Assembly: GCA_964035575.1 (NCBI GenBank)
Contig: OZ037845.1
Span: 1,612,001-1,676,000, forward strand
Origin: Rhynchopus sp. YZ270_cl-10
Lineage: Eukaryota
Direction: 5' to 3'
DNA: 64,000 bases
In this document: piece by piece, positions 3,125 to 61,545 of the stretch
How positions within the stretch are numbered: the stretch's first letter is position 1
How the letters are laid out: each line of letters begins with the position of its first letter
The notes under the pieces: generated by a model
The model's database searches: none
What the model was told of the DNA's origin: nothing
The model's input: only the letters and a program-made list of their open reading frames with translations
Program-made: the position numbers and the translations under genes

Positions 3125-3345
3125 TTTGTTGCATGTTGAGCGCCACCTTTGTTCATGTCAGTGTGCTTTTTCACGTGACCGACCAGTCATTTGTTTGATA
3201 TGATGTTAGACGAACGTGTTTCGCAGACACGGTTCGTTTCTGTTCTTTTTTTTTCTTTTTTTTGCTACTGTCACAAGAGGGCTTTGTATATCAAGTCAAC
3301 TTTTTTTTTGCGATTTGTCTACACATTTTTTTTTTAACCCTTTAC

Positions 3346-5700: not shown

Positions 5701-7431
5701 CTGTACAATGTCCCTCAAAAGACAAAATGCAATAAATACACGGAGAAGAGGCACATCCAGTTCAGGGTCAGGAACTGCAACTACGCGTGTTACTTTGCCC
5801 AGTCGCGGGTATTTTCCATTATTTTAGTTTCGATCTGAAGACCGTACAAAATGGTTCACTGCACACCAAAGTTTGAATCCTCTGATGACTCAAGCGCGTC
5901 AGAATGGTACATTATTCCCAAAAAATGACCCAAAATACCCTATTATGTGATAATGCCGGGTGTGGATGAGAGGGGATGAGAGCGTCAAAAAAAATCGAAT
6001 CTTGCGTCTTTTGAAAGATTTCGCACAAAATCTTCTCATTAAAAAAAAAAATCTTCAAAAAGTCCTAGTGGAAGCCAATTTAGGTGGTTGCGTGGACATA
6101 TATGTCCCCTCTGGTCCTTAAAGGGTTAAATTTATATTCGCTTTGTTTGTACGTTCACGTGCATACTACGATTTGTGTAGTCAATGTGGGTGGTGTAGGT
6201 GTTGAACACGATATGACTTTTTTTTTTGTGTTTGATTGGTTGCACATCCACATTTCCTTAACTTTTGTTCGCGTCGAGGATGCTTTTCATGCACTAGGCC
6301 CAATTTATTACTTTGTTTATAATACCTGACCATTGTGTTGTCCGGCACATGGTTCTTCGTTTTTTTTGTACTTTGCTCATGTTCACGTGCACACTGCGAC
6401 TTGTGAGAGACAGTGTGTGTGATATGTGTTGAATGTGGTATATGACAACCATGCCCTGCTAAAAAGGCCTTTACTCAGGTCACCAGTCAGGAGCAAAACA
6501 CACACGCATGCCATTAGCTTGGCTTGCGGTAACGTTCTCGTGCAGTATGAATTCTACAATGGTGTCGTGCACTGCGTCCGTCACGGATCTGAGTATGAAA
6601 CAATCTTTCTTTGTAGGTATCTGTCCAGGATACAGATTGTTGCTTTCTTTTCACCGTTCTTGAATGAAGACGTGCACTTGATGTGCAGTCACCTTTCAGA
6701 TGTTTTCTCTTCGTCGCTCCATGACATTGGGAGCAAGTGCCTGGCGTGTATTGTGTTGGCATGAACATTTTTTGTGTTCCCACTAACCACCACTCTTGCT
6801 TCAGGTGTCCGAATACTGTGACCACCCAACTTTCCTTGCTTTGTTTTCGTTGCCTCGGTACGCATCCGTTTGCATCTATTATTTTTATTATTATCGCCCC
6901 TCCACCCTCCCAAAACGTTAAGCCGCTTTCGTCGCCTTTTTGCGCAGTGCGTATTTGGCGATGAAACGCAGTTTCCAATGATTCTGCTTTTCTTGCAGAT
7001 GTCTTTCGCTTCTTCTATGCTGCACCCTCCCCTCTCTCCACCCTCCCAGTTGGAAGGCCAACTCGTTTGCGACAAAGCAGGGGAAGTATTGTCTCAGTTG
7101 AATGCAGTAACTTCATCAGCTTCAACTGCGGTGTCAACAGGGACAAGCACTGCCCCTCACCTATTTGTCATTATCATAATGTGTCCCCTTCCCCCTGACG
7201 GCATTTGCAGCAATCCATCATTTCTTGGTTGTTTGCACAAGCACACCGCCGTGAATAATTACTACTGTGCAAAAGAAAAATCAAGAACGCGTCTTTTTGT
7301 TTATTGTTTGCTTGCTTCTCTGCCCACACCCACGTACACCATCCACCCACACAGATTGCTCTTTCGCATAACACAACGACCCTCTTGTCGGGTTGTCCTT
7401 TTCCAACCACTCCAAGTCGTTGCTTTCCATC

Positions 7432-10557: not shown

Positions 10558-12639
10558 TATTTTTTTTTCAGTTACGAATCAAGACACCAAGAAGCAAGAA
10601 GGCATGCCATTAACTTGTTGTGTGCCCGTGAGTGAATCACATTATTTGCATCCGTATTATATTTTGTTGCTGCTGATTTCGTATGTCACTTTTCTTACTT
10701 TTCCGACCCCTGTTCGTGTCGAGTGTGCTATATTCACTTGACCGAATTTTATTGATTTGTTTGTATTGTATATAGACCCTCGTGTTGTCCGAGACATGGT
10801 TCTTGCTTTTCTTTTATTTTGCTCATGTTCACGTGCACACTGCGACTTGTGTATGGTCAGTGTGTGGGTAATATGCGTGTTGAATGTGGTATATGACAAC
10901 CAAGACTCGGCTAAGAGAAGGCCTTACTCAGGTCACCAGTCAGATATCAGCGGCGAACCGTTTACATGTGCCATTTGCTTGGATTGCGGTTTCTTGTGCA
11001 GAATGAATGTCTGCACAGTCGTTTGAGATCTTCGTATGAATCAACCTTTCTTTGGTAGACCTACTGACTCACAGTCAGGTAGGTATCTGTCCAGGACACA
11101 AATAATTTGTTCTCTCTTTTTACCGTTCTTGAATGAAGACGTGCAGTTGATGGGTGCAATCTAGTCAGCTTTCAGGTGTTTTCTCGCACCGTATCATTGG
11201 GAGCAAGTTCCTGGCGTGTCCTGTGTTTGCATCAACCTTTGTTGTGTGCCCACTAACCACCACGCTTGCTTTAGTGTCCCAATAGCTGTCGACTTTCCCC
11301 CCCTCCCCGGTACCTGCGTCTGCACTGCACTTTTTACATTCTTTTTGTCATGCGTCAAGGACAGACACTGCCCCTCCCGTATTTGTCACACTGTTTGCTT
11401 TTTTCGTAGTTATGTTACGTTAAGGTATTTATCTTTATCGAAAGACGACTAAGCACAACGAGGTTCGTTTTTTAGATGCGACCCAGTCATCTAACAATCT
11501 ATTTATGTCTGCGCTCCGCTGATGGTGAGGCGTTTGCACTTTCAACTCTTTATTTATTTTTGCATCCTTCCTTCATGTGACCAAGCACGCTTGGATCATC
11601 TTATTAACCCTTTTTCTTTCTTACCAGAGTAAACGAAATGGATGTGGACTGCATGGTTGGGCTCCACCCCCGGTACAGCCGGTCATTGTACCAACACTGT
11701 CACAGCGGGCTGTTGTATTTCATGGCAACTTTCTTTTGGCTGATTTTCGCTAGAGGCTCCGCCCCCCCCCCAGACCCGTTGGGTGTGCATAAGACCTCCA
11801 GCATAGTGCGCAATCTCATTATTAGCTCATCATAGTAACCACAGCTAGAGAAACGCGCATCATGCGCAACAATATGCCACGAGCATGTTTTGTTTTTGTG
11901 TTTTTTTTATATGTCGTGTGAGAGCTTGCGAGAGCTGAGAGAAAAGCTCATCCCGTTCAGAGGTGACCAAATATAGCACACTAGCGCATGATATGATGTT
12001 ATGTCTCATGATATCCGGTGATCTCATAATGGCGCGCATTGATTGTCATTTGCCACACGTGATAGATCTAGTTGGTCAGACTTAACCTGAAATTTTTCTT
12101 CTTCTTCGTTGATCCTTCCTCCTATGCTCTTACTATATTGAATGCATATGCAGGGGTCCTAAGAGTGGTAACTTTTACCACTTCCGAAGTGACCTTTTTT
12201 ATTTTTTTGAAATTCGAAGGTCACTTCGAAGTGACCTTCGAAAAGTGCCCTAAAAAGTGACCTTTTTTTTTATTTTTTGAAATCCGGTGTCACGAAGTGA
12301 CCTCGGATACTTAACATACACCGGGAGCACGTTGGAGGGTCTGGGATTTTTTTTCTTTTTTGTCAAGATCAGTGGTCTGCAGGGCGCAGGTTGCTACCAT
12401 GTACAATTTTAAGCGATTTTTTTTTTTTTTTGAAATGTTGCGTACCGTGGCTTCGCCAGAAACTTTCGTTTCAGCAAAATACGTAAGTAATTTACGGAAA
12501 CTTACGATAATTACCAACGATAGTGCCATTTTATGGCAACATTTTTTAGAAATGTTGCGTACCGTGGCTTCGCCAGGAACCAAAACGGTGACACAGACCG
12601 CTGCGAAAATTGCCTCACAAGAAAAAAATGTATCTAGTA

Positions 12640-20165: not shown

Positions 20166-20428
20166 TGTCTTGACAGTTACGCATCAAGACGAGGAAGCAA
20201 AAGGCACATCATTAACTTGTTGTGTGTCCGTGAGTGAATCACATTATTTGCATCCGTATTATATATTGTTGCTGCTGAATTCGTATTTCAGTTTTCTTAC
20301 TTTTCCGACCCCTGTTCGTGGCGAGTGTGCTATATTCACTTGACCGAATTTTATTGCTTTGTTTGTATTGTATATAGACCCTCGTGTTGTCCGAGACACG
20401 GTTCTTGCTTTTTTTTTTTATAGGTGAC

Positions 20429-21264
20429 CAGGGTTTTTTCTAGGATTTTTTTTTTCAGATCTGGGGGGGGACGCAAAAAAACCACCCAAAAAAATTTTTT
20501 TTTCGCAGGTGCAAGCAGGGTTTCCGCTTATCTTCATGGAAAAATTTTCCAAAACCGTGAAGATATGTCCAAAAAGGGGTCTATAGTTTTCGCGCTCCGC
20601 GCAAAAAAGCCCGTTCATTTCACGTAAATACGTGATAACGTGGGATGGTAACGAACATCAAGAACCAAACCAACCCTTTTTCTCATGTTCCACGGAACCT
20701 TCCCTCAGTACAAGAAGAAACGGCGGTCATGATATCAGAACTTTCTGGCGAAGCCACGGTACGCAACATTTCAAAAAATTGTGACCTAAAATTGAACATT
20801 TGTACAGCCAAACTATGGTAGAGGGCTGTGGTATTCCGCATAAGTTTTGAGTTGCGCCGCAGGCGCACGGTACGCTACTTTTTTATTTTTGCCCATCCCT
20901 TATTCTCACTCTTTTGTTCGGTCTGTCATGCAAAGATTGAGTGAATTGGGGGCGCGGTCTGAAACTTCACCTCGCTATATCCTCTTCACAATGATGCCAG
21001 GAAGGGGATAAGACGCGCTTCGCGTCTTATCCCCTTCCTGCCTCCCTGCCTCCCTGCCTCCCTGCCTCCCTGCCTCCCCTTTTTTTTCTGGTGCGGGTTA
21101 CGTACGTTGTGTCCCAAATGGGGGTCTGTGCGGGTGACCCCCAACCACCCCCCACATCCTTTTTTCCCAAGTCAAAATGCGTCCCCCCCCGGGGGGGGAC
21201 GCGTTTCCCCCCAAAATCTGGGGGGGGACGCCGTCCCCCCCCGCTCCCCCTAGAAAAAACCCTG
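20429..21264. mobile_element. CAGGG-terminated MITE, 5-bp TSD
   Basis: TIRs cagggttttttctagg / cctagaaaaaaccctg. TSD gtgac (alternatively CCAGG ends with TSD tga). Absent from the paralogous region near 10805. Confidence 0.85.
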
Positions 21265-22808
21265 GTGACTAAGCAGAAGAGGCTTGGAATCATCTTATAA
21301 AATTTTCTTTTATTTTGCTCATGTTCACGTGCACACTGCGACTTGTGTATGGTCAGTGTGTGGGTAATATGCGTGTTGAATGTGGTATATGACAACCAAG
21401 ACTCGGCTAAGAGAAGGCCTTACTCAGGTCACCAGTCAGATATCAGCGGCGAACCGTTTACATGTGCCATTTGCTTGGATTGCGGTTTCTTGTGCAGAAT
21501 GAATGTCTGCACAGTCGTTTGAGATCTTCGTATGAATCAACCTTTCTTTGGTAGACCTACTGACTCACAGTCAGGTAGGTATCTGTCCAGGACACAAATA
21601 ATTTGTTCTCTCTTTTTACCGTTCTTGAATGAAGACGTGCAGTTGATGGGTGCAGTCACCTTTCAGGTGTTTTCTCATGGCTCCCACACCATTGGGAGCA
21701 AGTTCCTGTGTTTGCGCTGTAGTCTTTTTTTTCTCGGTGTCTGCGTCCGCACTGCACGATTTACATTCTTATATCATTTCACTTCTGGTTGGCCATGGCG
21801 CTGTCATCACTCCCTGTTCCCGCCCCTCCACCCTCCCACAATGTTAAGCCGCTTTCGTCGCCTTTTTGCGCAGTGCGTATTTGGCGATGAAACGCAGTTT
21901 CCAATGATTCTGCTTTTCTTGCAGATGTCTTTCGCTTCTTCTATGCTGCACCCTCCCCTCTCTCCACCCTCCCAGTTGGAAGGCCAACTCGTTTGCGACA
22001 AATCAGGGGAAGTATTGTCTCAGTTGAATGCGGTAGCTTCATTTAGCTTCAACTGCGGTGTCAACAGGGACAAACACTGCCCCTCCCTTATTTGTCACGG
22101 TGCGTGCTTTTTTCGTAGTTATGTTACGTTAAGGTATTTCTATGTATCAGCAGGTGACTAAGCACTTTATGATTACCAATGTTCAAAAAATTAAAGTAAT
22201 CTATTCAGACTAAGCACAACGAGGTTCGCGTTCACCTTTTGTTAATTATTGTGTTCTGTGATGAGACGTATTCATCTTACAATCTATTTATGTCTGCGCT
22301 CCGCTGGTGGTGAGGCGTCTGCACTTTCAACTTCCCTTTATTTTTTGCATCCTTCCTTCATGTGACCAAGCTCGCTTGGGATCATCTTATAAACCCCTTT
22401 TTCTTTTTGGCCAGATCCCTTACCACGCCTCCCAGCAGATGCAAAGGGGAAAACCCCCTCTGTTCTTTATTTTACCCGCAGTTTTAGTTACGTCGTGCTT
22501 CACACGGCGTATATTTTTACATGATTCCCCTACTCCCCCAACACTGTTTTTTTTTTTTCTAAACTTCTAACTTTTGAGGACGAGCTGCCGATCTGTTATA
22601 TGGAACACTGCTGAATTCGACGCCATGCAGACTTTTTTTATACCATTTTTTTCTTGTTTTGGTACAGCATGCACATTCTTACCCCTTAGGATGGTTTGAT
22701 AGGTGGCCTCAGTTTTCCGCGCAAAAAAACACCCCTTTCCTTTTCAGACAAAAAGAGACTTTACACAACATTCTTTTTAAAAAGGCGTTTGAACTAAGAC
22801 GTTGAACG

Positions 22809-23075: not shown

Positions 23076-24660
23076 ACACACCTCAAAACCTCACATTGTA
23101 ATGCAGCATGAGTGGGCGGGTCTACCTGGAATGGTGTAGTAGGCCCCCCTATAATGCAGGAGAAGGGGAGAGACTTTTGTGTTGTCTTAAAAAGTGAGTT
23201 TTTTCTCCTGGTTGGGTGAGTGTTGCAGAAGGGGTGTATGTGGTGCGTTGCCTAATTGGTTGTATCTTCATCTTGACATGCTTCTGTGCACGGAGGTGGT
23301 GCGCGATACGTGAATTTCAATAATTTCTGATTTTTTTTCATTTTTGGGTGGACCAAGGCCACTACGGGATGGCATTGTAGGGTGGTCTCACCTATCTTGT
23401 CTTTTGCATTGCGCTGGCAAAAAGCAGACTGCTGAGGATACGTATCGAGGTGCGAAGTCTGTTCTGCAGTAATAGCCTTACGTTCGTTAGGTGGTGTAGA
23501 GAAGTGAGAGAGAGAGCTGAGAGATATATTCACCAAATTCTCGATCTTTTTGTGTCTTTTTTTTATGTAACATTGCAACAAAAAAAAAGGAGCATTTTTT
23601 TTTTTTTGTGTGATTTAGTAATACGATACGTCTTAGGCAAGAAATGCGTTTGGTTAAAAAGAGCGCATTTTTTGCCTTCATTTTTTGTATCGTTTTTTTG
23701 TGTCGTGTGTTGCGTTATGGAGAACGAGAAAGAAAATGGCTATAAATGCTTTTGGGGAGGGCTTATCTTAACTTATCTTTTTTTTATTTCGATTTTTTTG
23801 CGTTTTATTTTTGTTTTTCGCTATTGCCTTTTTTAGCACATAGCCCCTTTTCTCTCCCCCACGTATTGCCCATATATTATTTTCCCCCCAGAAGTGTGAA
23901 CCAGGCTTATTAGTTTGCCTGAATATTTTACTGGAAAAAAAAATAATTCTCCTCTTCTTTTGAGCTGACTAAGCAGAGTGTAGCTTAGAGTTCATTAGTA
24001 CCAACTTTTCTTTTTTTCTTTTTTTTTTGCTGAAACCGAAATAATCCAAAACCCCCGTGGAAAAAATAAAGTAAACCTCCTCGGATAAAAATAATTTTTA
24101 TCCTCCCCCTCCTCCTCCTCCCCCCCCCCACCATCCCCAGTTACTCACAGCAGACAGCAGCAGTATTAAAGTAGGTAAAAGCTCTTGATCGGGAGAAAAA
24201 AAAAGGCGGGAAATTTCTCTTTTTGTTCTTCTTTATTTTCTTTTCTTTTTGTGTGTGTGTGTGTTTTCATAGGTGACTAAGCATGTGAAGCTCGAGATCA
24301 TCTTACAAAAACTGTTCTTAACATTTTTGTTGATTTTTTTAAAGCAAAATGGTATCCAAATTGTATTGCTCCCAATGTTTTTCATGGGGTAAAAGATGAT
24401 TACTGTTAGCTCTTTGAAAGACAGATGGGATTGTCCATCAGCTCTCCTTTTTGATTTAAAAAAAAAAACATTGAAAAGCACGTTGTGGGGTCACGCTGAT
24501 TGATTTGTGTATTATTTTCCTTCCGGCTGATCACTGAGGAAGCATTACGCTTGGCAACCTATCTTTTCAACAACACAAAAAAAAAGGAGAGAGCATCACA
24601 GAGGCCGACATTGTTGAGTGAGAGGAATCTACCTCTCTGTGGGCAATTTTTGATACAGTG

Positions 24661-25396: not shown

Positions 25397-25624
25397 TAAA
25401 AAAAAAGACCAAAAAAAAAATTTTTTTTGCTTACACGCAGTGTTATTAGAAACTGAACTTGATTAGCCAACGGTAAATTTGTCCTCACGCCTTTTCCTTT
25501 TGAATCATTCCCCTCCCCCAATCAATTATCATGTGCGCCACCCAGGGTAAGAGCCTAAATGGCTTCCTAAAATGGCTGCGGTCAACGAAAAATATTTTTC
25601 GACTACAGCTTCCAAAGCTACACT

Positions 25625-27526: not shown

Positions 27527-27539
27527 CTGAAATTTTTAT

Positions 27540-28400
27540 TATGATGTGTGCTGACTATGCTTGGCACTTCATATGCGCTTACGGCGCCCCTTATCCACTC
27601 CTCGTGACGGCGAATGGGTAAACTTTATTTGTAATTTTCATTTTTTGTCTTCTTTGTATTTTATTTTTATTTTTTATCATGTCTGTGCAGAGGCCGATCG
27701 CGTGTCCGTTATTGTCGTGTATTCAGTGATTTGGTTGCCTGTCTTATTGTATGTGCATATGCGCTTATTCGCAATGTCTGCATGGTTCTCTCCTGCAAAG
27801 TGTGGGTTATTCCAGTGGTCAAGGGCCACTGTGACATGGTCAAGGACCGTGTCTTTTGTACCAAGCTGGGTTGTTTTTCAAGTGTGCGCTGCTCGTAGAT
27901 GGACATGGTGTACCTCGCGGTCGAGGATACTATACGGTACCGTAGTGCCCGCTGTCTTGGTGATGGCGCGTGCAAGAAATGTTTATCTTTATGATGTGTG
28001 CTGACTATGCTTGGCACTTCATATGCGCTCACGGCGTCCCCTTATCCAGTGTCCTGTCCTCGTGATAGCGAATGGATATAAACCTTTTATTTTATTTTAT
28101 TTTTTTGTATGATGTGTGCTGACTATGTTTGGTACTTCATATGCGCTCACAGCGCCCTTTATCCAGTGTCCACGTGATACCGAATGGATGCAAACTTTTT
28201 TATTTTTGTTATGATGTGTGCTGACTATGCTTGGTACTTCATATGCGCTTACAGCGCCCTTATCCAGTGTCCACGTGATGCCGAATGGATACAACCCTTT
28301 TTATTTTTGTATGATGTGTGCTTGGCACTTCATATGCGCTTGCAGCGCCCCTTATCCAGTGTCCTGTCCTCGCGATAGCGAATGGATATAAACCTTTTTA
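27540..28400 (+). repeat. Array of five ~95-nt structured units separated by T-tracts
   Basis: Units start at ~27540, 27990, 28108, 28210 and 28310: tatgatgtgtgctgactatgcttggcacttcatatgcgcttacagcgccc(c)ttatcca...cgaatggata..aaac(c)tttt. A partial sixth starts at ~28408. Confidence 0.92.
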
Positions 28401-29049
28401 TTTTTTGGTGAGTGCTGACTTCTCAGTGCCCCATTCGCTTCGGCGTACCTGTCTCTACACTGCTCCCGAGGCGGCGGTAGAACAGTTTTGTTTTGATCAG
28501 TTGTTCGGTTTGTGCAGTTTTGATCAGTACTGGTTCTCCTCTCAATCGGTTTGGATGGACAGGGCCAGTGGGGTTTTTGTACCCATCTAGAGGGTTCTCG
28601 TGGCTGTGCGTTCCGCCCTCCCCCGCAGAAGCTGCGAGGTTGACGGCGGATGCCGTGTTTACAGGTTTCTCTCTTTTCCCACCTTCCCTCCCTTTTCTCC
28701 CCCTTAAACTCCATACTCTGCTACCTTTCCGCTACGCGGTCCCTTTGGGCTATGCTGCGGTCAACGAAAAAAGACTCAGTAGTAGATTAGTGAGGACAAA
28801 TCAAGTGGCAAAATGTTAGTTTAGTTTTTTTTGAGCATTTATTTTGAAATCGATGCTCTCTTTTTCTCTCCCTGTTGTGTACGCTATATGGCACATTCAT
28901 CTTTTTTAAAGTTTTCTTCTTCTTCTCATTTGTTTTCAAAGACATGCATGCTACCCTTAGTAGGGTCACATTCATTCTTTTCAGTGCTTATGCCTAGACA
29001 TTTGCACTATCCATTTATTTAGTTTTTCAAAGGTGACGGTCAACTGTTG

Positions 29050-29176
29050 CCACCTGATTTTTACTCCGCGTATAGGCGCGTAAAGGTGTGTATAGGGCCG
29101 TATAGGTCCGTAAAGGCATATACGGACCGTTCGTACACGCCTTTACGCGCCTATACGCGGGGTAAAAATCAGGTGG
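29050..29176. mobile_element. 127-bp palindromic MITE, 5-bp TSD tgttg
   Basis: ccacctgattttta...taaaaatcaggtgg near-complete fold-back. TSD at 29045-29049 and 29177-29181. Confidence 0.85.
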
Positions 29177-32060
29177 TGTTGGGTCATCTTCAATTTTCTT
29201 GTTTTATTTTGTCAGTTTTGTGTAATCCTTTTTTGCGACAGTAAGGCTAAAAGCCAAAAAGACACTACCAAGGTAGTGTGCTCTATTATGTGATGGAGTT
29301 CCTCCATTGTGAGTCCATTCACAGAAAAACGAAACAAAAAAAAAAAACGCATTGGGTAGCGAGTGACCCAGTATAATTCAATAGCTGTTCTTGCCAGTTT
29401 CTTTTTATTATTATTTGTTCTGTTCTTAAAATGGGACATTTTTTTTCTTTTTTCTTTGCGTGAATTTGCAACAAAACACAATGCGTGATTTCTGGTTTTG
29501 CACCTTTTTTTTTTTTTTTTTCTTTCTTCTTTTCTTCAAAGTAAAGATGTGCAATGAATACGTCTCCTCCCTGTGAGACGCATATTCATTTCACATTTCT
29601 TTTAGGATAGCTAAGCTACCTTCTGAGGCTTAGCTTCATCTCCATTTTATAATGCGACTAAGCACGAGAGGCTTAGGATCATCTTATAAACTTTTCCTTT
29701 ATTTTTTTTTTCCTCTTTTTTTCAGATGTGCACATGAGACTTCATCCTTAAAACACATAATTATTTTGCGTGATCAAGACAGGTAATGGGGTGGCGCCTG
29801 GTGGTTATTCCGGTGTAGAATGAAAAATAAAACCACCAGCCACTCCACAAGGTATCTCGTCTTATTTGTTGCACCTCAACAAAAAAAAACTACAAATCAC
29901 TATTTTCTGATAGTTCTGCGAGAAGGCGTTGACGACTTCGTTCCCCTTTTAGTTTCTAGATATTGGCTAAATACGGGAGGCTTGGGCTGGGTTCAAACGT
30001 GGTACGCGGCTTTTACGTAGTACATACGTAGTAGTTACATCGTATTGTGAAAACTTTTCTCTTGTGCTTTCATCCGGATGGCTGGCATCGTACGTGGGTC
30101 AGTCGGAGGTGCCTGCATTAATAACTTCACTTTCTCTTGTTTTCCCTTCTCTCCACCCATTTGTGCAAACAATTCTCGTGGAAGGGGGGGGCGAAGATGA
30201 GAGAGAGGGATCAGAGTCATCGCTGCTTTAAATTTTGCGCTCCAAAAATATTTAAAAACCAGATTTCAAAAAAAAAAAAAAAAAGGGAACTAATACAAAA
30301 ACCCACCTCAAAGTGGGTAATTTTCGAGAACGGGGCGATCTTTCAATTTATCTTATCAATTTTGTGTGTGTGTGTGTTTTTTTTTTTCTCTCTTTTTTTT
30401 TGGAGAAAAAAATCTTTCAGGGTGAGCACTACAAGGCTTTTGCTCATCTTCATCGCCAAAAAAAGATTTTTTTTTGGCAATAAATGTTTTTGTGGGCTTT
30501 TTATTTTATTATGAAAGTGTCCCACAATGTGTCCAGATATGCATAAATGCATCGTTTTTGTACCCAACATTACCCCACTCTCTTCCACCCCCTTTTTTTA
30601 CTGTGATTTCCTCTTATATGTTTTTTTTGTCCAAGGTACACCTTTTTTTCGTACCCTGTTAGTAAACACGTAGTATTTGACAAAATGCTCGAGACCCTCG
30701 TGAAGAGTGGAAGCGAACAACAAACAACCTTAAATTTTCCTCTTCCCCGTTTTCAGCCTTTTGAGCAACAAGCAAAGAGTAACGAGTCTCTCGAGCATTT
30801 TTTTTTTTGTATGGCAAATAGATAAAAATGACAGTGGAGAGTGCACAACTGTGGCAACACAACCGAGGCAACTACACTACTCCAACAATTTATCAAAAAA
30901 AACATGGAGATCACGCACAAGCAAGGTGACTACACGTTGTCAATTTATCAAAAACAAATGAAATGGCGATTATCTTGCTGTCTCTGTAGAGAGACGTGAA
31001 GAGAGGGACGATTTTTTTTTTGTTCTTTTTTAAAAAATATTTGAAATTGGATTTCCGATTGTTGTGCTTTTTTTTTTTTACATAGAGAATGTAGTGTGAG
31101 TTAACCTCTTCTCTCCCCCCCTGCCCCCCTTTAACCCCCCTGGTTCTCGGTCCAGAGCTCTTCCTGCTAGTTCTGTTGCTGTCTTTGCTGTGCAAACACT
31201 TTCCCCTCATTTTCCCCTCCCTTTTGAATACGTAAAAAAAACAAAACAAAACAAAAATAGTGGAATGGTGAACAACACCCCCCGGATGTGCGGCTACCAG
31301 AGACACACATTTTCCAGATGTAAACCACGAAATGGATTGTAGGACTGCATGGTTGGGTGTCCACCCCCCGGTACAGCCGGTCATTGTACCAAGGTACACT
31401 GTGTTCACGAGAGGGCTTCTGGATTTCAACTCTACTTTTTCCTCCAGATGTCATATGAGTGATATGAGTGAGTCACACCCCTCTGAGGTGAGCGTGGTCC
31501 GTCCTTTTCAGGAGTGTTTTTTTTTCTCTCTTCTTCTTCGGTACTTCAGGTTCTTTTTGTTTGCCTTTTTTTTTTAGGTGACTGAGCACTGTGGCTTAGG
31601 GTTGTCTTACAAACTTTATCAAAAAAAAAAAAAAAGACTACTCCGGGGTTCGGTAACCCTCGGAGCGTCAGTGCACTGCATTCCCTGTGCCTTGCACTAC
31701 CAACTTCACCCTTTTTCTTTTTGTTTCACATCTATTGCAAAGCTCTAACTCCTTCTATTTGCTTTAAAAAAAGGATCTTGAAGAAAAATCTGTGGCTGCT
31801 ATCCTGTAGTCGGAAAATCAAACAATTTTTTTTTTGTTTCTCATCAAACAGTTTTTCGCCGTGAATTTTGTTTCTGGGGTTCCATAACCCGCGGAGAACC
31901 AGTGCCCGCGTCTGCCGATGAACGGTGAGTCGTTTTCACTTTCAACTTTTCTTTGGTTTGACCCAATCTGATCTTCGCGTAGGACGGTGGGTAGCGTACC
32001 AACTAAACAAAAGACGAACGGGGTTTTTATTATTTTTGTTTTTTGTTTCTCTTTCATCAA

Positions 32061-32187
32061 CCACCTGATTTTTACCCCGGGTACAGGCGCATAAAGGCGT
32101 GTACAGACGGTCCGTATATGCCTTTACGGACCTATACGGCCCTATACACACCTTTACGCGCCTATACGCGGGGTAAAAATCAGGTAG
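32061..32187. mobile_element. Second copy (inverted) of the 127-bp palindromic MITE, 5-bp TSD atcaa
   Basis: Near reverse complement of 29050-29176. TSD at 32056-32060 and 32188-32192. Confidence 0.85.
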
Positions 32188-35100: not shown

Positions 35101-36739
35101 CGGTTGTGAACCGCCTCCGTTCTCTTACGGTACGGACCACTCACTTTTCTTCCCTTTTGCCTAAGCTCGACTGAGATGTGTTTTAGCACATCTCAACTCC
35201 TTTAGTTCTGATGTAATCATTCAATTCTTTGGATAGCAGCCTTTTGTGGCATGATGCTGTCTTTGTAGGATTGTTTGATTGTCATTACGCGGGGATAGGG
35301 AGAGATGGAGAAGGTAAAAAGAGAAATGATACAGTCAGTCGTCTTCAAAACTGCAAAGAAAAAGAAGAAAAAAAGTAAAAAAAATAATGGGGGAAAAAAT
35401 ACCAATACCAATCGTGTATCCCTCCACTGTCCTCAAAAATCTGTTTTTAGTTCTGGTTTTTTCCCCTCAACTTTTAGTGAATCTCCTTTTTTACACCCCC
35501 CTTTTTTTTTAATCCCCCTTTTGATGCATTCGTCCTGCGTTTGCATATTTTAGTGTTTTTTTGTTTTGTTTTGTTTCAGCAAATAAAGAATGTTCTCTGC
35601 TCCTTCCTGTTCCCAGCGCCCCTCTTTTAGTTTCGAATCAGCTCTGCAATAACAGAGGGCCTTTTTTTTTAGATGATGGCAGATGAACATGCGCGTAAGG
35701 TATATTCATCTTCCAAGGTCCAAGGCTTGGTACACATTTAACGCCCGATGTAGGTTTTTATTTCCCCCTAAAAAAAATAGTTGTACTTAGCGTGACATCT
35801 GATTTGTACCCTCAGTTTGTTGATGTTTACCGGTGTTTGCCGGCCGGTCATGGCAAACACCGGGAAAAACTCAGGGTCCAAATTAGGTGATAATCTGATG
35901 AAGCTGGAGGAGAAAAGATTTTTTTAAAACTCCAGCGTATTCCGGCGAGATAACGATAGTGATACATGATGTATGTGTGCACGAGAGGCACGATTCATCT
36001 TACAAGCAAGTTTCCCTTTTTGCTTTTTTTTTGTTTTTCCTTTGTGTGCCATTAGACGACGAACCTTTGCAAAAATTTCTCGCCGTTTTTTTTTCTTCTT
36101 CTCGCACGAAACTCCCCCCATTTTTAGATTGACCAAACAAAACACTCACTGCTTAGGTTCATCTTATCAACATTTTCTCCCCCCCACTTATTGATTTTGT
36201 GCACGGCAATGCACACATTTTTTTTTCATTTTTACTTTTTCAATTTCCCTCTTTTTCCTTTTCAAATTCTCTTCAACCTTCAAAAAATTGTGCTTCACTC
36301 TATAGCACAGAGGGTTTTTCCCCCTCTCAACTGTTTTTTTCCTTTTTTTCTTTTTTTGTTTTCGTTTCTTTCAACGAAGACAGGCAAATAAACAAACAAA
36401 TAACAAGGACATTTGACAGTGGCTGAGAAAGAGGATAAGTCGTAATCTCATACAAAGTAACGCGCCCTTCCTCTCCAACTCCACGTCTACAAAACTATCA
36501 AGCAAAATTAAACAGAGCACAAAAGCACTTTCAAAACATACAAAAAACATTTTCAAACCCCCCTATCAACTGTTGGTTGTTTTCCCCACAAACCAAAGAT
36601 TTCTCCCGACGTTTTCCCTATAGGTACCTCATGAGTTTTCCCTCATGTTCAAAGCCTTTCATCCCCCACCCACGAAACAAACCCCATTATATGCAAAAAC
36701 CCTCTTGTGAACCACTGGCTGGGGTGGTTGTTTACGACT

Positions 36740-37720: not shown

Positions 37721-40700
37721 GGCTTACTGTTTGTGTTATAAATAGTAAGTATATGAATGTATTTTTTTGTGCTTTCATCGGGGCTGGCATCGTACGTGGG
37801 TCAGTCGGAGGTGTTTGCATCAAAAACTACAGTATTTTTTTTTTCCTCTTTTTTTTTCGGTTTGCAGAAATGGGTAGTGTTTTTTTTTTCTTCTTCTTCC
37901 CATTTCTGCAATACAAAGCTACCCCTTTCCGCAGTTAACCCCAATACAAATATTACTCCGAACAAGCAATACCTTATATGTCCCCCTCCCCCGCCCCTAG
38001 CGGGTCGACTGTATTGTGATAGTGGCCCATCACAATACATAATGCACATCGTCACATCGTCACATCACATCAACTGTGTTGTGACGTGTATCATGTATTG
38101 CGATGGGCAATTATCATACAGTTCACCCCCTTTCCATGCGATACACGAAGAGAATGGAAAAAAAAAAAAAAATAATTTGATGCTCGTTTCAGACAACAAC
38201 TTTTAGCAGAACTGTACTGTTGCGAGGTTTCGTCCCTCCCCATACCTTTTTCCCTCTCAGGGTGAGTTGCCATTTTTTGAGGCTCATAATCACCATTAAA
38301 CAACTTTATATTTCAAAGGTGGCATTCGCATAATAGCTCATCTTATCAATCTTTTGTATTTTTGTTTTTTTGTTTTTTTTTTAAATGCGCCCGCACCTTA
38401 AAAAGGTGTGGGCTGTCAAAAACTTCACCCCATCTTTTTTTTTTTTTCCTGTGGATTTGCTCTTTTTTTGTCTCATACAAATGCCCCCTGTACCTCAGGG
38501 GAGGTGTCTTGTGTGTTTCAAAGAAATATTCATTTTTTCCCTTTCTTCTGAATTTGAAAATAACTCATGGTTTGTCCATATACGATGATCCAGAAAAGAC
38601 AGTGGACAGCTTGTACAGGTTGCAACTACACTATTTCAACAATTCTGTTTTAAAAAAAAAAAAATTATGGAACTTATGGACAGTGGAGATTGCACAACTG
38701 TGCGCAACACAACCGAGGCAACTACACTACTCCAACAATTTATCAAAAAAAAAAAATTAAAAACAACGGGAAAAAAAAACTAAGGTGGCTTCTTTGAGAT
38801 TCCCCACCCCTGCGTTGTGTTAGAGGCGTCTGTGCTCATTGCCTTGTTAGTTTCTGCTTAAATAAAGAGCTCACCACAACACACCCGGGGCCCCAACCAA
38901 CCCTCACTGACTGTCAGTCCCCACCCTGCTTTCCTCATACTCCCACTCTGTTCTTCTGGAAGAAGAAAAATATAGTGGAGCGCACTAGGGTGGCTACACT
39001 GATACAAGTTTTCAAGAAAAGAAATAGTGGAGCGCATCCTGTGTCTACACTAATACAATGATTGATGACAACCAACAACGACAAGAAAAAAGTGTAAACA
39101 CTCTCCTATCAGTGTACACTAACACAGTACGTGGCAAAGTGTCGAAAAAAAATATTTGATATTTACCCAAGTTCTGTTATCCCAGCTGTAGCAAAATGGG
39201 TAAATGTGTTGCATATTTTGCACGTTTTCATTTGCATATTGCGAGGCAGGCCAGATTATTTAGGAAAAGGGAGATAAAAAGGGGGGGAAACCTGCAGTAC
39301 CCTCAAAAGTCTGAAATTGAAGTTGAAATTAAAATTAACCAAAAAAGAAAGCGAAATAATGTTGTAGCGCGAGCACACTCGCCTTTGTCCACACTGCAAT
39401 GCGCCAAATGTTTTTCAATGTTTCAACATTCAAACAAAATGTGGTCATTGTACGACGTGGCAACACAAAGAGAACAATTTTTCAACAATAAAAACCCCCC
39501 CTTTTTTTGTGCGTCAATCGAAACTGGTTTTTATTTGTTTTGTTTTGTTTTGTTTGTTGTTTTTAGGTGACTCCGACGTCAGGTGACTAAACGTTCTTCG
39601 GTTCATCTTACATTTTTTTTTTTAAAAATTGCATCAGGGAGTCCTTTTGTGGCACTTGCTCCTGAAACTCTATGAAGGTCTACCTGAGGGTGAAAGGTGC
39701 TGGGACGGGCTTCCACACACAGTGATAAGGCCGTAGTGGGAAAATGGTTAAGTGTCTCCGTAATGACAAAGCCACTCCCAAAAGGAGAGAAACGGTACCA
39801 CAGGTATCATGGATATCTGACTTTCCTCGTGGAGCTACCACAGCACTAAGAAGCAAGGAAAGTCCCCAACTACAAAGCAGTGGCAGGTCTCCTGTCTATA
39901 ACTCAACATTTTTTGTTTTGTTTTTTTTTTGTATCCTTTTGTGTGCTTTCTCTCATGGAAAGTATATGAAATCGATTTATTTATTTTTTGCTCCACCAGT
40001 ACTCGACAGCACACAGCACACCCACTGTTGGCACCGCCATCCATTCTCTTCATAAAATGTGGCATGTACAGGTGACCCTCTTGATGACAGCATTTTTCAT
40101 TAGCTTTTCCCTAAAACGCTGTTTTTGAAGGGTTTGCTTTTTGCCTATACTACCGACGATTGAAACGGGTGGGGTCCCTTAGTGACTTTTTTTTTTTCCT
40201 TCATTCCTTTATTCCATGATTTCTGTTCTCTTTGAATAGAAAGATTGAAATTTTTATGATTACGTTCCCTTTCCCCCCCGTGTTTTCTTTCACCCCGTAT
40301 TGCACAGACCATATTTTTTACACCCTCGTTTCGTGTGGTTCCCGTTAAAATGACGTTTTTTTTCCCCCCCACTTCCACTCGATTCGTGATAACATTTTCC
40401 ACACAGCTTTTTTGGGCGAAAAATTAGCCCTTTTTTAAAAGCATTGCCAGGTCTCACCTAATTTTGACCCACATTTGCCGGTGTTTACCGTTAAATGGCT
40501 GGCAAACACCGGCAAATGGGTCGAAATCAGGTGGTCTTCTGTCCACTACGTAACTCAAACAAAAAAAAAATTCATCCAGGGGCTGGTCGTCGTAGGTCAG
40601 TCGAAGGTGTTTGTATCAACTACCCTGTTATTGTGCACGCCTTCTGACGTGGCAGTGGGGCTACGTAGTGTACTCAAGATAGCTACGCATTCAAAAAAAA

Positions 40701-42241
40701 AATGGTTTTCGTTTTATTCTGAATGATTAAAATTAATCTGCGAACGTCGAGCTGAAAGAACGCAAAGAAGAGCGGGGCGGTTGGGTAATAACAATACCAC
40801 TGCAAAAAGCCCCCACTTTCCACACACAAAAAAAAAGGAGCTGATTGCAAAGGGGTTCCGTCAATAATACCCCCTCCTCTTTAGTCTTGTCTTCTTTTTA
40901 GTCGATTTTTTTTTTTTGTCTGTTGAGTGTTTTTAGGCGAGTCGCAGGCAAACAGAAACTCACATAGGTAACAACCCTGTTTTTTTTATAGCGAACTTTT
41001 TACCACAACATTTTTTTTTCTCTTCAACTTCAACCTGTTCTTCATGACGGCCTTGTTACCAGTGTAACAAGGTCACCGTCTATTTCCCCTTCCCCTCTCC
41101 CGAACGACTTCTCTTTTTCTTCTGCTCGTTTGCAAAGAGATGTAAAGGTTCTGATGGAGATTTTGCTATCATTTGGACATTTTAGTCGCACACTATTTCA
41201 ATCATTCGATCCGAAAGAGCCCCGATATTTCGGTTTGTATTATTTCCTTACAACTGTAAGCGTACCGCTTCTGTTGTATACAAACAAAAAACAAAAAAAA
41301 CGATTAAAAAAACGAAAAATGCGTCTTTTGTTATATCGACAAAAAAAACGCATATCCCCTTTAAGGTGACTATGCAAAGCATAGTTTCATCTTCCCAACT
41401 TTTTCCCCTTTAGTTGCTGTTTTAGTTTATCTTTTTTGAGTACCATTTTGGTAACACCAAAACACTGCCTCCTTCCCCCCCCCCCCCCCAGAAGTTGTAT
41501 TTTTTTTATTGTGATTCACACCTTTCCCAAAGCCTTTTCCTTGCTTTTGCTTTTGTTGCTGAGGTTCCTGAGCATGAAGCTGTGCCTCATTTATGCCAAC
41601 AAAAGGTATCATTCTGTTTCGAAGTGCAGGCATTGTGCCTCATGAGATCTCCCCTCTTCTTTCGAAACAGTCCACTACCCCACACCCCGCCCACGGCCTC
41701 AGATGCTAGCGTTGTTGATACTTTTGCCGCTCATTATTTGTCTTTACGGAATCTGTGCTTGCAGCCTCAAAGGCACTTGCACTTACAACTTCCAGTTTCT
41801 TTCTGACCGCACCCCCACCCCATATCCCCACAAATTCCTCTATATTCTTTTGTTCAGCTGCATGAAATAACAGCGGGTACAAAACATAACAATAACATTG
41901 TGTCAGATGAGGGTCCTAATGTGTCTCATCTCTGTCACACTCATGGATGAGGTGTGCCCTCTGTGCGTATCCTAGCCCGTTTCTAAGATGTGCAGGCAGA
42001 GGCATGTTCATCTTACAAGTGTTTTTCTTTTTTTTTTTTGGTGGGTGACAATTGAGTCGTCAGAGTACAGGTGGGTGATTGTTGCTGCAACAAAAGAGCT
42101 TCCCCGTACTCAGATGCAAACATAACAAAGAAAAGTGAATAATTAAAAAAAAAAAGCCCTCCCGCATCCCCGTTGGTGTCCACCACAGCCCTATTCTGCA
42201 TACCCCCTCCATCACACCCTCCAGATACTTCAGCGCCAACA

Positions 42242-55336: not shown

Positions 55337-55510
55337 AAAAAAAATATGTCGACACAACAAAAAATGAACCATAAAAAACCGCTCAGAAGAACAGTCGAGT
55401 TTGTTGCAAACACCCGCTTATTCTAACTAACAAAAAAAATGCAAAGTATAGTGGAGCGCATCCTCAGGTGCCCACATTATCTGGGTGATCTATGAACGGG
55501 GTGACCTTTT

Positions 55511-55560
55511 TAAGGTGACTAAGCACGAGAGGCTTAGGATCATCTTATAAACTTTTCTTT
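55511..55560 (+). repeat. Dispersed ~45-nt hairpin element (consensus copy)
   Basis: taaggtga ctaagc acgagag gcttag ga tcatctta taaacttttcttt. Identical at 57780 and near-identical at 29656 and 61495. Confidence 0.9.
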
Positions 55561-56448: not shown

Positions 56449-58028
56449 ATGTCCGATGAAAAGGGTCAGAAGACAAACACGCAGGCATTCATGTCTGCGC
56501 TGGCGCAGTTCTGCTTCTCGTCTGTGGGGATGATGATAGGGAACAAAATGGCCATGGACTACCTGCGCGACCCTGTGACGGAGAAGGCACTCCCCAGTAC
56601 CCTTGTTGTGATCCAAGTGCTCGGCACGCTGTTGCTCCTCTTCGTCTTCCGTGAAAAGATCGACCACGACAAACTCACCAAAGAAACGGCCGTCTCCTGG
56701 GCACCCATAGTGACGCTCTTCGCAGGCATGGTGTACACATCGGCAAAGACCTTCCAGTACGTCCACGTCTCGTTTGTGATCATTGTGCGGAATGTTGGTG
56801 CAATTATCACAACATGTATGTCATCTGGATGATATAAAAACCACAACACATCAAAACAGTTGTCGAGTACTTCGTGCGGCACACTACCGTGAACGTCCAA
56901 ATCCTTGCCTCGGAACTCATTATTGGTATGTAACAGAAATGTTGCGGGGATACTTCAAGTTTCCCTGGCTCCCTTTTGCATTTTTTTTTTCTACAGTTCT
57001 CGGAACGGTGCTGTACAGCCACGGTGGTGTGACGTACTTCAAGGACTTCTGGCCAGGGATGTTCTGGTGTCTCGTGAACGTTGTCTGCCAGACGCTTTAC
57101 GGTGTGACCTTGAAGTGGAAGATGGACAACGACGAGAACATCAAGGACATGTCGAAGTATGTGTCCCTCCTCTCCTCCTCTCCCCCTCTTCCCTCACCTC
57201 GGGGTCTTCACTCCCGCAACATTCCCCTTCACCCACCCTCAGGTACACAATGTCGCTGTACAACAACGCACTGTGCCTGCCGTACCTGGTGGTGGTCGCA
57301 GTGTTGTCGGGCGAGCCGCAGCAGTACGAGAAGATGCTGCCGCACGTACCGACCACGGGGTGGGTTGTGATTGCAGCGACGTGCGTGATCGGGTTCATGA
57401 TCAGCACTGCTGGGTTTGGCCTGCAGCGTCTTGTCTCTGCCACGACGTTCCTCGTCATCAACAACATGACCAAGGTGCTGAACATCATCCTCGGTGTCGT
57501 CTTCCTCCACGACAAGCTCCCAGGCAAGATGAGCGTCATTGGGTGCGCCATCAGCCTGGGGGGTGGCTTCTGGTACTCCTTTGAGATGATGCGGGTATGT
57601 CTCTCCTATCTTCTCCTCTATCTCTTTGCATTCTTTTCTGGTCTGGTAATTTTTGTGATGTCGCATTTCCTCATATGGGTCACTCACACTAGGTCATGCC
57701 ACTGCGGCATCTGGGTATACCTTTCTGGTGTTTTCTACTTTCATCTGCCTGCATCAACAAAACTACAATTTTCTTTAACTAAGGTGACTAAGCACGAGAG
57801 GCTTAGGATCATCTTATAAACTTTTCTTTCTTTTTAGGATGTCTCACAAAATGCTTACATTCATCCACTATTATTCATCACAAACTTTCATATCAAAACA
57901 AACAGCTGAGAGACAAGAAGAAGGAGGAAGTGCCCAGCCCCACCTCCATCCGCACCCACTCCGACTCCCGAAACGACGAGCTCAACGTTAGAGTTTCTTC
58001 TAGCCGTACCCTAACCGAAGACAAATAG
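56449..58028 (+). CDS. Nucleotide-sugar transporter (GDP-mannose transporter, LPG2/VRG4/GONST-like), 5 exons
   Basis: Multi-TM protein with SVGMMIGNK, MSLYNN and SATTFLVINNMTK. Exons 56449-56815, 56860-56925, 56997-57156, 57243-57594 and 57906-58028. Substrate is inferred. Confidence 0.85.
57780..57830 (+). repeat. Dispersed hairpin element, intronic copy
   Basis: Identical to the 55511 copy. Lies in the last intron of the transporter gene. Confidence 0.9.
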
Positions 58029-59523
58029 ACAGCCATCACATGGCACCCCCCCCTCCTGTCTTCTTCTGTTTCTCCCCACGAAAAACAACACAACAAAAAA
58101 AAATATAGTGAGCTTCATCCTCTGGGTGTCTACACTAATTATACAAACCGAGTTTTCAAAAAAAAAATATGTATGGGTGGTCAACAGCACGACTGTGATC
58201 ACGAAGGGTTTTCTTGTTCAAGGATAACGCCTGTTTGGCGATGGTTTGGAGGTGAAGAGTCAGCGGGGTGATGTCACCAAAGCCGTCCTATGACCAAAAC
58301 CTACAGGGAAGAGGGAGGGGGGGGTCAGGGCGAGGGTGGGGGGGGAAAGTCAGGGAATGGTATGGGGTTTATTGGTCTTTCAATAAATATTAAGAAAAGG
58401 CGTCATAATTGCCTTGTAAGAAACAACGGCAGGGTCTTTTTTCTGTTTGTGTTAATTGTTCTTTTTACACCGTTTTCAAAAAAAAAAAAAATGTGCTTTT
58501 TTTTAGGCAAACAATTTCTACTCCACTGATCTAATCGAGTAAAAATATGGTGGACTCAACGGAGGTCAGGTCCAGCGGGCAAAATGAAGAAATCAGCAAA
58601 ATGGTGCCTTTGTGAGGGATTTAAATGCAAAAGGGGACTATTTTTTGGAGGGGTCACAACTGGGGACGTGATTGTGACGTGAAATTTGTTGTCAAAAAAA
58701 GGGGACTAAATTTGGGTAGGTTTTGTGGTTTGCAGGTTCAGAATTTTGCCTAACTCGCACAATTTTTTTTTTGGAAACGGTGTTGATTCTTTTTAGGAGG
58801 GCTTCGATATGGTCTACCGCGTACTTTTTTTCCGGTGACTAAGTACAGAGAGGCTTAGATTCATCTTACAAAAAAATCTCTCTTTTTTCTTCTTTTTTTT
58901 CTCTAAAAACCCCTGGGAAAATGGTCAAATCAGGCCATTTCCTGTGAGGGGTTTATGTATGGTTTTGCTTTTTTCCTCTTTTCTTCTGCAATTTTCTTCG
59001 AATAGGGGGGTTGTTTGGGGCAAGAACTCCTTGAAAAGCATATTTTTCATTGAATTTCTTCGTTTTTTTCTCCATTTTTTCCCCCTCTTTCATTTTTCAC
59101 ATTTTGCAACGGAAATGATATTGGATGTATCGTGGTATAGTGCGTCCTTTTGTACTTTCGAAGAAAGTTGGGAACATTTTTTGATCCCTATACCTATACC
59201 TTACCTGTGTTATCAATTTATTGAGTGCATATGTGGTGTTCCTGAAACCCCTTGTAAAAGACATGTCAATATAGGCCCCCTCCAGAACACCAATACATAG
59301 AAATACTTTCTGTTCTTTGATGGTAAAGTACACGCAACGAATTCATTCATTCTTTTTTTGTTCTCGAAGAACACTTCGCCTGCATAAGGCTTTCGTGTGG
59401 ACGAGACTGTTGCCCAAACAAGAAAGCCTCTCTCCCACAGCAACACACTTTTAAGATGTTAAACTGACAGACTTGTAGAGAAAATTGGCACGATTTAACG
59501 TTACTAGTAAAAAGTAACAAAAT

Positions 59524-59991: not shown

Positions 59992-61494
59992 AAAATTAAA
60001 ATGAAAAAAATGCAAAAAATGCAAACATTGTGTCAGATGATGAGACATAACCAATCTGACCAGATCAAAATTACCCCTTTCGAGATGAGCAAATGAAACA
60101 CAAAATATTGACAGTGGAGATTGCACGACTGTGGCAACACAACCGAGGCAACTACACTACTCCAACAATTTATCAAATAAAAGCGAAGACTGCAACAGAT
60201 GCGCCAATACGAATCTTAGGGATTTTGACACCATTTTTTTTTTGTCATTCCTAACACGTTTGCATATCACACAGCAAACAACCCCGTGTGCAGGCTTATG
60301 TTATCAAACCACTATGTCTCAGCACTATGCGTGTAGAAGCGCAGATCGCTCTCTCAGAAAATATCCCCCCCTTTTTTCAGTGCTTGCACATTCCAACTTT
60401 TCACTTTACGTTAAAAAGACTGATCACAGCGTAGCTTCGAGTTTCACCAGTCTTTATCAGGTGACTAAGCATGTTGCCGTGCTTAGATTCCAAGGTTTCT
60501 TCTAATGAAGTACAGTTTGGATTGTGTTTTTATTGTGCCGTTTTTGCTCCTGTACGTCACGTTCTATTTGTTGTGACATTCGACAAATAAAATGGGGCAC
60601 CCCTTTTAAAAAAAAAAACAAAATATTGTTCAAAGACGGCACGTTGTTGATGTTAGCTCCTGGAGATAAGCTCTTCTTAAAGGAAAAGACGTCTTCGTGC
60701 ATGTGTCTGTCAAAAAAGAAAAAAAAATGCATGAGGATACTGGACTGCATCATTGCAACCGGTTTTCAAGAAAAAAACAAACAAACAACAACAACAACAA
60801 CAAAATCAATACTGCTGTTCTACTGTTGAAAACGCTTGAATCGGCTTTTCTTATCAGTAGATGTGTGCGGTATGCAACAAAAACAACAAAACGACAAAAA
60901 ACAAAAGCAAAGAAAAACAGGGGGAAGGAGTTTCCCCACATGGAATGTTTTATTTTTTTTTTAATTTTTTTTTTAATAAAAAAGCCCCTAAAAAACACCC
61001 CAGTCCATTTGCTGTCACTAACCAAAAAGGGTAACAACAACAAAGGTTTGGCCCTTTTCTCCCCCATTAAATTTTATATTCGTCTTTTTTTAACTCAAAA
61101 AAAACGCCCAAAAAAAAAGTAGAACGAAACATAACAACAGCTAAAACGCGAAGAAACCATACAAGCACCGTTTCCCTCCAAATTTAGAAATCTTTACGCA
61201 ACAACAAAAAAGCCCCCTCCTCCCTACTCCCTACTCCCTACTCCCCACTTTGAAATCCCCCCTTCCCCATCTACCATAAGCCCAAACCCGTCGGGGAGTC
61301 CTTGATACCTCATGACTGTGCACGAGCAACCTTTTGTTCATCATAGTGTTGACACCCGAGGGACGAACACCACCCTTTATTGCTGTACTTTCGTGTCCGA
61401 TGCCTGCTATGACTACCATTTTTCATCATCCCTGACAACAAACTTGTGGAAGCCAGCGCAGCGTGATGCTGATGTTGTGCGATAACGAATATGA

Positions 61495-61545
61495 TAAGGT
61501 GACTAAGCACAAGAGGCTTAGGGTCATCTTATAAACTTTTCTTTC
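61495..61545 (+). repeat. Dispersed hairpin element
   Basis: taaggtgactaagcacaagaggcttagggtcatcttataaacttttctttc. Confidence 0.88.

Follow-up and report, generated by a model that had tools for sequence, protein, structure and literature searches.

A short hairpin family confined to one strand of a 64-kb stretch of diplonemid DNA and its presence at one of four paralogous sites

Genes in diplonemids are thought to be regulated mainly post-transcriptionally. In the 64,000 nt of Rhynchopus sp. YZ270_cl-10 analysed here (contig OZ037845.1, positions 1,612,001 to 1,676,000; "the window"), a short hairpin sits in a T-tract behind one of three tandem CAP-domain genes and is missing from the paralogous tracts, which raises the question of whether so small a hairpin can move as a unit. 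If it can, a hairpin of ~50 nt would, to our knowledge, count as one of the smallest dispersed eukaryotic elements, its alignment with transcription would offer a direct way to ask how long diplonemid UTRs are built, and with thousands of look-alikes of different ages a single assembly would be enough to test the mechanism. Were it just a UTR motif that is copied passively, it would still be a candidate cis-regulatory element in diplonemids, none being mapped in the portions of the literature examined.

All of the ORFs that we read as genes in the window are on the + strand, and unidirectional gene clusters are reported for Diplonema papillatum. The CAP-domain genes (1-2693, 7432-10557 and 15381-20165; the Pfam CAP hit was tested on the third) encode proteins in which long stalks of Thr/Pro-rich repeats are accompanied by a hydrophobic stretch at the C-terminus. 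A beta-adaptin gene lies at 46789, its best named relative being an EukProt 'Sspe' protein (56%); 'Sspe' is among the columns of a table of diplonemid gene families in PMC10161547, which points to a diplonemid.

One filled and three empty paralogous sites

The first-pass annotation of this DNA had described three paralogous regions downstream of the CAP genes, with empty sites at ~10799 and ~6351 and, in the third copy, a hairpin inside the T-tract that was later split by another element. Both empty sites are present in the sequence and the regions are indeed paralogous, although there are four sites rather than three, since the one at 6351 is a duplicate in the spacer and the one at 3230 has to be added (Table 1). 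One of the four is filled, with 11 T and a 42-nt hairpin (a net gain of 53 nt without the nested element), and the remaining three have no hairpin. At 20.4 kb the filled state is that of the assembly sequence. Behind the GC that it shares with the empty site, it continues with 11 T, the hairpin and all of the empty site's T-tract; with the nested element included, the order is flank, 11 T, 9 nt of hairpin, the 836-bp element, GTGAC, the remainder of the hairpin and the whole T-tract. The 836-bp element, with its terminal inverted repeats (TIRs), splits the hairpin with a 5-bp duplication, therefore the hairpin was there first, as had been proposed, and the TIR element inserted into it later.

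Between 10799 and 20400, 142 of 149 positions are identical in the left flank and 329 of 329 in the right, and a tree of the flanks groups these two sites, while the distant paralogs at 3230 and 6351, both empty, share blocks of 77-88% identity. The presence/absence difference at 20.4 kb is real, and at least one gain is needed unless there were three losses. Because one gain suffices where three losses would otherwise be required, we consider it likely from the comparison of paralogs that the hairpin was gained here, in agreement with the earlier reading of a single gain as the most parsimonious history; both distant sites are among the three empty ones. The window contains one clean filled/empty pair of the hairpin.

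A tract of ~350 bp is perfectly identical between the two closest paralogs (10808-11158 and 21303-21654) and begins exactly at the right junction of the insertion, in a wider region that is 90% identical, which suggests that gene conversion may have occurred between them. Because this tract looks like conversion, the age of the insertion cannot be read from flank identity. The filled copy matches the four youngest copies in the window at 35-37 of 42 positions. The identical copies at 55511 and 57780, which had been cited in support of the gain, are identical to each other over 50 nt, but the filled copy matches them at only 36 of 42 positions and, as it differs at 6/42, the young pair was not its source. 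The exact junction is ambiguous through TTTT microhomology: the site can be read with a T-rich target duplication of 4-5 nt, or with none and insertion between TTTT and C, so the earlier claim that the unit lacks a duplication holds at this site for only one of the two readings.

A second small presence/absence difference, of a different unit, distinguishes 22152-22237 from 11442-11505, with a 9-nt duplication around a 44-nt insert that sits inside a long-loop relative of the hairpin and is absent from the paralog. A ~100-nt module at 11621-11720 (also at 31311 and 46080) lies behind the second CAP gene and is missing behind the third (compare 22405).

Table 1. Hairpin copies and paralogous sites in the window
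Feature	Position	Strand	Detection or remark
Young copy	55511..55560	+	3'UTR of TPR-domain gene
Young copy	57780..57829	+	identical to 55511 over 50 nt, likely intronic
Young copy	61494..61544	+	ends ~45 nt upstream of likely trans-splice acceptor 61588
Young copy	29649..29699	+	directly behind diverged partial copy 29611-29641
Diverged copy	58834..58872	+	profile and covariance model
Diverged copy, longer loop	33122..33178	+	profile and covariance model
Diverged copy	24271..24319	+	profile and covariance model
Diverged copy behind 10-T run	31576..31617	+	profile
Diverged copy	41361..41403	+	two-sided inner-stem change, candidate 8-bp flanking duplication
Diverged copy	11575..11615	+	profile; paralog of 22360 (not independent)
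Diverged copy	22360..22404	+	two-sided inner-stem change
Diverged copy	23963..24013	+	profile and covariance model
Diverged copy	39581..39612	+	profile and covariance model
Diverged copy, inner stem kept	60459..60500	+	covariance model
Diverged copy	36115..36181	+	covariance model; sole E<0.001 match outside training set
11-T run left of inserted hairpin	20409..20419	+	empty paralog ~10799 has 4 T there, then C
Filled site, left piece of hairpin (first 9 nt)	20420..20428	+	ends in first GTGAC copy
Nested 836-bp element inside hairpin	20429..21264	.	perfect 16-bp terminal inverted repeats
Second GTGAC copy	21265..21269	+	5-bp duplication made by nested element
Filled site, right piece of hairpin	21270..21302	+	
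T-tract identical to empty site	21303..21318	+	start of ~350-bp tract identical to second gene's flank
Empty paralogous site	10798..10826	+	behind second CAP gene
Empty paralogous site	6351..6382	+	duplicated segment in spacer between first and second CAP genes
Empty paralogous site (fourth)	3230..3265	+	directly behind first CAP gene

A dispersed family in one orientation

The hairpin belongs to a dispersed family with at least 16 copies in the window; neither the size of the family nor its strict strand lock was part of the first-pass annotation. The unit is a bulged hairpin with an 8-bp outer stem that includes a G-T pair, a 2-nt bulge, a 6-bp inner stem and a variable loop; a short (CTTT)n-like tail comes after the hairpin, and the whole measures ~50 nt. 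A pattern of the two arms has four exact matches in the window against 0.00 in 100 shuffles, and the 9-mer of the 3' arm has 17 matches on the + strand and 0 on the - strand, where 0.47 would be expected. With a profile from four copies we obtained 26 hits at E<=5, 26/26 on the + strand, and with a profile of the core alone 29 hits, 28 of them on the + strand. With a covariance model trained on 15 copies there were 33 matches at E<=5. Of these, 16 reached E<0.001, 15 of which were the training copies, and two, with E values of 1.3 and 2.9, were on the - strand.

In the 15-row alignment, two rows of which are paralogs, 86% of the cells pair, two of the 14 pairs have a two-sided change and there are several G-U-compatible changes. 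The covariation score was reached by 9 of 500 shuffles and relatedness alone can give such a signal, so that covariation lends the stem weak support. Fold energy favours the + strand in 16/17 copies as RNA and in 13/17 as DNA, but since T/G-rich strands fold better in any case we gave this difference no weight. At 35960, 41985, 49967, 51235 and 28880 there are hairpins with a different inner stem and the same 3' 7-mer, and this sharing suggests that the family may be part of a wider superfamily; sites of the 7-mer pair fully with upstream sequence in 7 of 27 cases, family copies included, versus 5.5% in controls.

The 5' extension shared by 61495, 35960 and 51235 comes to 8-9 nt (p 0.02-0.05), too weak to establish a longer parent element, and we rejected a SECIS or kink-turn because the bulge letter at 55539 varies in more than half of the depth. 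The 21 Rfam matches at E<=1 in the window include none on a hairpin copy, a search for tRNAs on the copies found none, and simple patterns for Pol III A and B boxes found none near 13/13 copies. Neither a GTAG foot nor conserved sequence beyond the tail was found in the aligned copies, and an exact-pattern scan for the hairpin had 0 matches in viral contigs, metagenome contigs and prokaryotic genomes. A degenerate 5.8S rRNA-like piece lies at 34879-34993 on the - strand (E 2.7e-4, under the Rfam gathering score).

At a covariance-model E<0.001, all 16 copies are on the + strand, which is the strand of the genes. Away from the copies, 47-78% of T or pyrimidine tracts are on that strand, depending on which of seven tract definitions is used, and given this bias the probability that 15 independent copies would all be on the + strand ranges from 1e-5 to 0.024; the strand lock therefore exceeds the strand bias of the T-tracts. 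Four other short families, including one with A-rich flanks, likewise occur only on the + strand (7/0, 4/0, 5/0 and 4/0); for two motifs that belong to larger repeats the counts are 3/2 and 3/1. The non-coding DNA resembles a patchwork of cassettes in sense orientation.

The 7/0 family is a second short hairpin, mostly with A-rich flanks, at 30833, 38601, 38682, 38974, 39026, 58107 and 60113, and depth is very high at 59.9-60.2 kb in all four public runs described below. The three short modules are at 30098, 33491, 37800 and 40596; at 11537, 13536, 22322, 31937 and 50801; and at 3272, 31406, 32783 and 46131.

Copies in public runs and in transcripts

We compared contigs of four public runs (X3, X4, X5 and X6) with 53-62 kb of the window; 53.1-58 kb is present in 6 of the 10 runs listed, and the runs may all come from one strain, which limits the scope of the comparison. 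Summed contig depth at 55539, which is not a copy number, is ~2,000-2,700x that of unique sequence in X3, X4 and X6 and suggests thousands of look-alikes of the hairpin. Contigs leave the window at 55507-55512 (77 in X3, 65+52 in X5), at 55566 (30 in X5) and at 61551 (28 in X5), and beyond the edges of the hairpin their sequence is T-rich with an agreement of 0.36-0.5. Since the contigs depart at the hairpin edges into unlike T-rich sequence, the unit is sharp-edged and its flanks are unlike, and the many copies with unrelated flanks bear out the earlier description of a very small dispersed unit. X3, X4 and X6 have contigs linking the 57780 copy with a flank, and no removal of any copy occurs among the rows listed (15 of 417 joints and 12 of 27 indel rows). 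There is good support for dispersal of the hairpin as a discrete unit, and we regard its mobility as likely.

We take X5 to be RNA from its contigs rather than from the run record: these are exactly spliced, with a 181-nt gap equal to exons of 102+78+1. Record 17 of this run is spliced across three GT-AG introns with base precision and extends 174 nt past the stop codon into the 55511 copy, which places this copy in a 3'UTR. Record 18, read up to its last 262 nt, departs from the window at a GT donor upstream of 57780, where an intron is predicted: this copy is likely mid-intron, ~80 nt before the AG. Record 22 begins with 22 foreign letters at the AG of 61588, which is likely a trans-splice acceptor, with the 61494 copy ~45 nt before the AG. 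The depth ratio of X5 to X3 is 0.99 in the hairpin bin, 0.29 in the exon bin and 0.009 in the TIR-repeat bin, so that, relative to X3, the hairpin bin is ~100-fold better represented in X5 than the TIR-repeat bin. The three mapped copies have no fixed position (3'UTR, likely mid-intron, before a likely trans-splice site), and we therefore rejected a dedicated splice or branch-point signal.

Junctions, known elements and mode of spread

The association with T-tracts that was suggested earlier is supported in the family. With junction boundaries set by eye, a TTT-rich 4-mer is directly left of 9 of 14 copies and within 3 nt of 11, against a background of 10% (p 1e-6). On the right, the first four T are followed by C at 7 of the 9 junctions listed. 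Seven of 13 copies have repeated CTTT(T) units behind them and an eighth row has a single unit; a 9-nt CTTTT-CTTT run is common to the empty site and the tail, and tail and target are indistinguishable. In 13 copies, locus-specific duplications sum to 65, compared with 65.7 for permuted flanks (p=0.59, with low power as the copies are T-rich and partly old). The best single candidate is 8 bp at 41361, and no target duplication of fixed length was found across the copies. The hairpin had been described as having neither terminal inverted repeats nor a target duplication of MITE type; this may hold, but the arms themselves are an imperfect inverted repeat and the filled site can be read with or without a duplication.

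The hairpin acts like a short non-autonomous interspersed element that departs in a defining feature from each of SINEs, SIDERs, HINEs, MITEs and REPs. T-tailed SINEs such as Au-like SINEs and Sauria SINE are also non-autonomous and of high copy number, and in those of the RTE clade a microsatellite-like tail matches the insertion site, as the T-rich tail matches T-rich sites here; in contrast, our unit is ~50 nt long and strictly sense, with no tRNA or 5S head and no Pol III boxes found, and has no demonstrated duplication and no known partner LINE (PMC6007223). The Leishmania SIDER1/2 repeats are likewise short euglenozoan repeats of intergenic regions and 3'UTRs in unidirectional clusters and are sense-biased (~4:1), but they carry the 79-bp ingi signature, an A-rich tail and 11-19-bp duplications and are called extinct, whereas the hairpin is set apart by a length below that of the signature and by its T-tail, and has identical copies and a 16/16 sense orientation (PMC2323293, PMC2689281). 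Bacterial REPs are also very short, high-copy, bulged imperfect palindromes in non-coding DNA; unlike them, the hairpin is eukaryotic and lacks the GTAG foot, and we found no linked HUH nuclease and 0 prokaryotic matches (PMC8266576). Tailless retropseudogenes are short pieces of RNA integrated without a poly(A) tail, but they have known parent RNAs and were selected for clear duplications (PMC5322556), while Rfam and tRNA searches found no parent for the hairpin. Unlike a MITE, the hairpin occurs in one orientation only, with imperfect arms and no fixed duplication, and the MITE-like features at the filled site (perfect TIRs, 5-bp duplication) are those of the nested 836-bp element.

In the literature on diplonemid repeats there is no such element among the matches listed. 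The word 'hairpin' is absent from the main text of PMC12621601 and from the main text and seven supplements of PMC10161547, the main supplement of which may describe such motifs. We found no confirmation in the literature of insertion of the T. cruzi SIRE into pyrimidine tracts.

We tentatively prefer, at somewhat less than an even chance, a minimal T-tailed retroposon that is copied from RNA and mobilised in trans by a LINE-type reverse transcriptase. A short hairpin RNA would be released from transcripts, its U-rich 3' end would anneal to the A-rich strand where a pyrimidine tract is nicked, and reverse transcription at that spot would produce hardly any recognisable duplication or none. We favour retroposition because tail and target agree, as they do in RTE-type SINEs, because the hairpin is abundant in transcripts, because the strand lock extends to unrelated short families, including one in A-rich flanks, but not to the two motifs from larger repeats, and because retroelements and scattered pieces of RNA prevail in D. 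papillatum, which has ~2500 retroelement gene models versus >60 DNA-transposon-like ORFs as well as ~3600 scattered rRNA pieces (PMC10161547). Of the possible signatures of retroposition, a (CTTT)n-like run follows 7/13 copies but may be tail or target; neither an excess of duplications nor a Pol III promoter pattern was found (13 copies), and no partner LINE was seen in the window. Priming from the T-tail alone predicts 47-78% sense copies, versus the all-sense orientation observed, and an extra step would be needed, likely a nicking preference for the template strand or selection against antisense copies. None of the mechanisms that we considered explains the strand lock without an added assumption.

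The junction is fitted best by a minimal or one-ended non-autonomous Helitron2/Helentron, in which an HUH Rep/helicase would recognise the bulged hairpin and move it as single-stranded DNA, inserting it between TTTT and C or T with no duplication and a variable number of terminal T. We regard this reading, which had been proposed for comparison, as less likely than retroposition; it fits the T-rich target and the junctions but not the anatomy. The filled site reads exactly as a TTTT/C insertion with 7 extra T and no duplication, the TTT-rich 4-mers on the left, the C after TTTT on the right and the lack of a duplication excess all agree, and Helitron-like ORFs are reported for D. papillatum (PMC10161547). 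Helitron2 inserts between TTTT and T or C without duplication and has truncated copies with an intact 3' end (PMC3627910), and HINEs (HINE, DINE-1) prefer T-rich sites with variable T and have a hairpin with compensatory changes (PMC4067079, PMC3627910). However, our unit is a single hairpin without the separate pair of subterminal repeats and the 3' palindrome of these elements (PMC4067079, PMC3627910) and is far shorter than two small Helitron2 families of 657 and 673 bp (PMC3627910), no Rep/helicase was found among the five window proteins scanned, and the mechanism itself explains neither the strand lock nor the sense-locked family in A-rich flanks.

The strand lock is fitted best by templated copying of a selected UTR element. 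Here the hairpin would be a protein-binding host RNA element of long UTRs and introns, spread passively by templated repair or ectopic gene conversion among pyrimidine tracts that have CTTTT-CTTT in common and kept in sense by selection, and we think this rather improbable. Strict sense orientation is common to the other short families, the paired cells, two-sided pairs and G-U-compatible changes of the alignment are what such an element would have, hairpins with other inner stems retain the 3' 7-mer and pair fully at 7/27 sites versus 5.5% in controls, and the ~350-bp identical tract beside the site points to possible conversion between paralogs. Diplonema 3'UTRs are long (section 7 of PMC10161547), and the SIDERs are a precedent for sense-biased UTR repeats (PMC2323293, PMC2689281). 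Against it, a discrete unit accounts better than conversion for the sharp edges of the family and the unlike flanks beyond them, the copies have no fixed place relative to processing sites, the covariation is weak (9/500 shuffles) and would also follow if the hairpin were needed for mobility, and copies are broken by insertions at 20429, 22152 and probably 29050.

Far less probable than any of these is that the hairpin was ancestral at 20.4 kb and was lost by deletion between TTTT runs elsewhere, so that the difference would not bear on mobility, an event that could produce the state at 10799 taken by itself, and exactly its sequence, and that is compatible with a filled copy which is diverged, already interrupted, not necessarily recent and not datable by its flanks, since the sites at 3230 and 6351 (77-88% blocks) are also empty and would require three losses in place of one gain, and identical copies with unrelated flanks show dispersal anyway.

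Beyond the preferred retroposon reading, a broader picture, which we hold to be speculative and improbable as a whole, is that structured micro-elements of ~50-100 nt, well under the sizes known for SINEs, MITEs or Helitrons, colonise diplonemid genomes by transcription-coupled insertion that follows only the sense direction of polycistronic clusters (T-tailed ones into T-tracts, A-flanked ones into A-tracts) and build the long UTRs as modular protein-binding cassettes, as a eukaryotic counterpart of bacterial REPs.

Other elements in the window include a 633-aa ORF in 25470-28800, by eye a DIRS/Ngaro-type RT-RNase H with no Pfam hit and with short repeats at both ends. Behind it are about five tandem units of ~110 nt containing a hairpin, with a motif resembling the 3' end of HDV-like ribozymes, and Rfam gave no such hit. 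A link between the hairpin family and the RT-like ORF at 25625 was set aside, the covariance-model hits behind it being weak (E 0.56 and 3.6). A 127-bp palindromic element with 15-bp perfect terminal repeats is present at 29050-29176 and 32060-32185, and the copy at 29050 has a 5-bp duplication and splits an apparent copy of the hairpin family.
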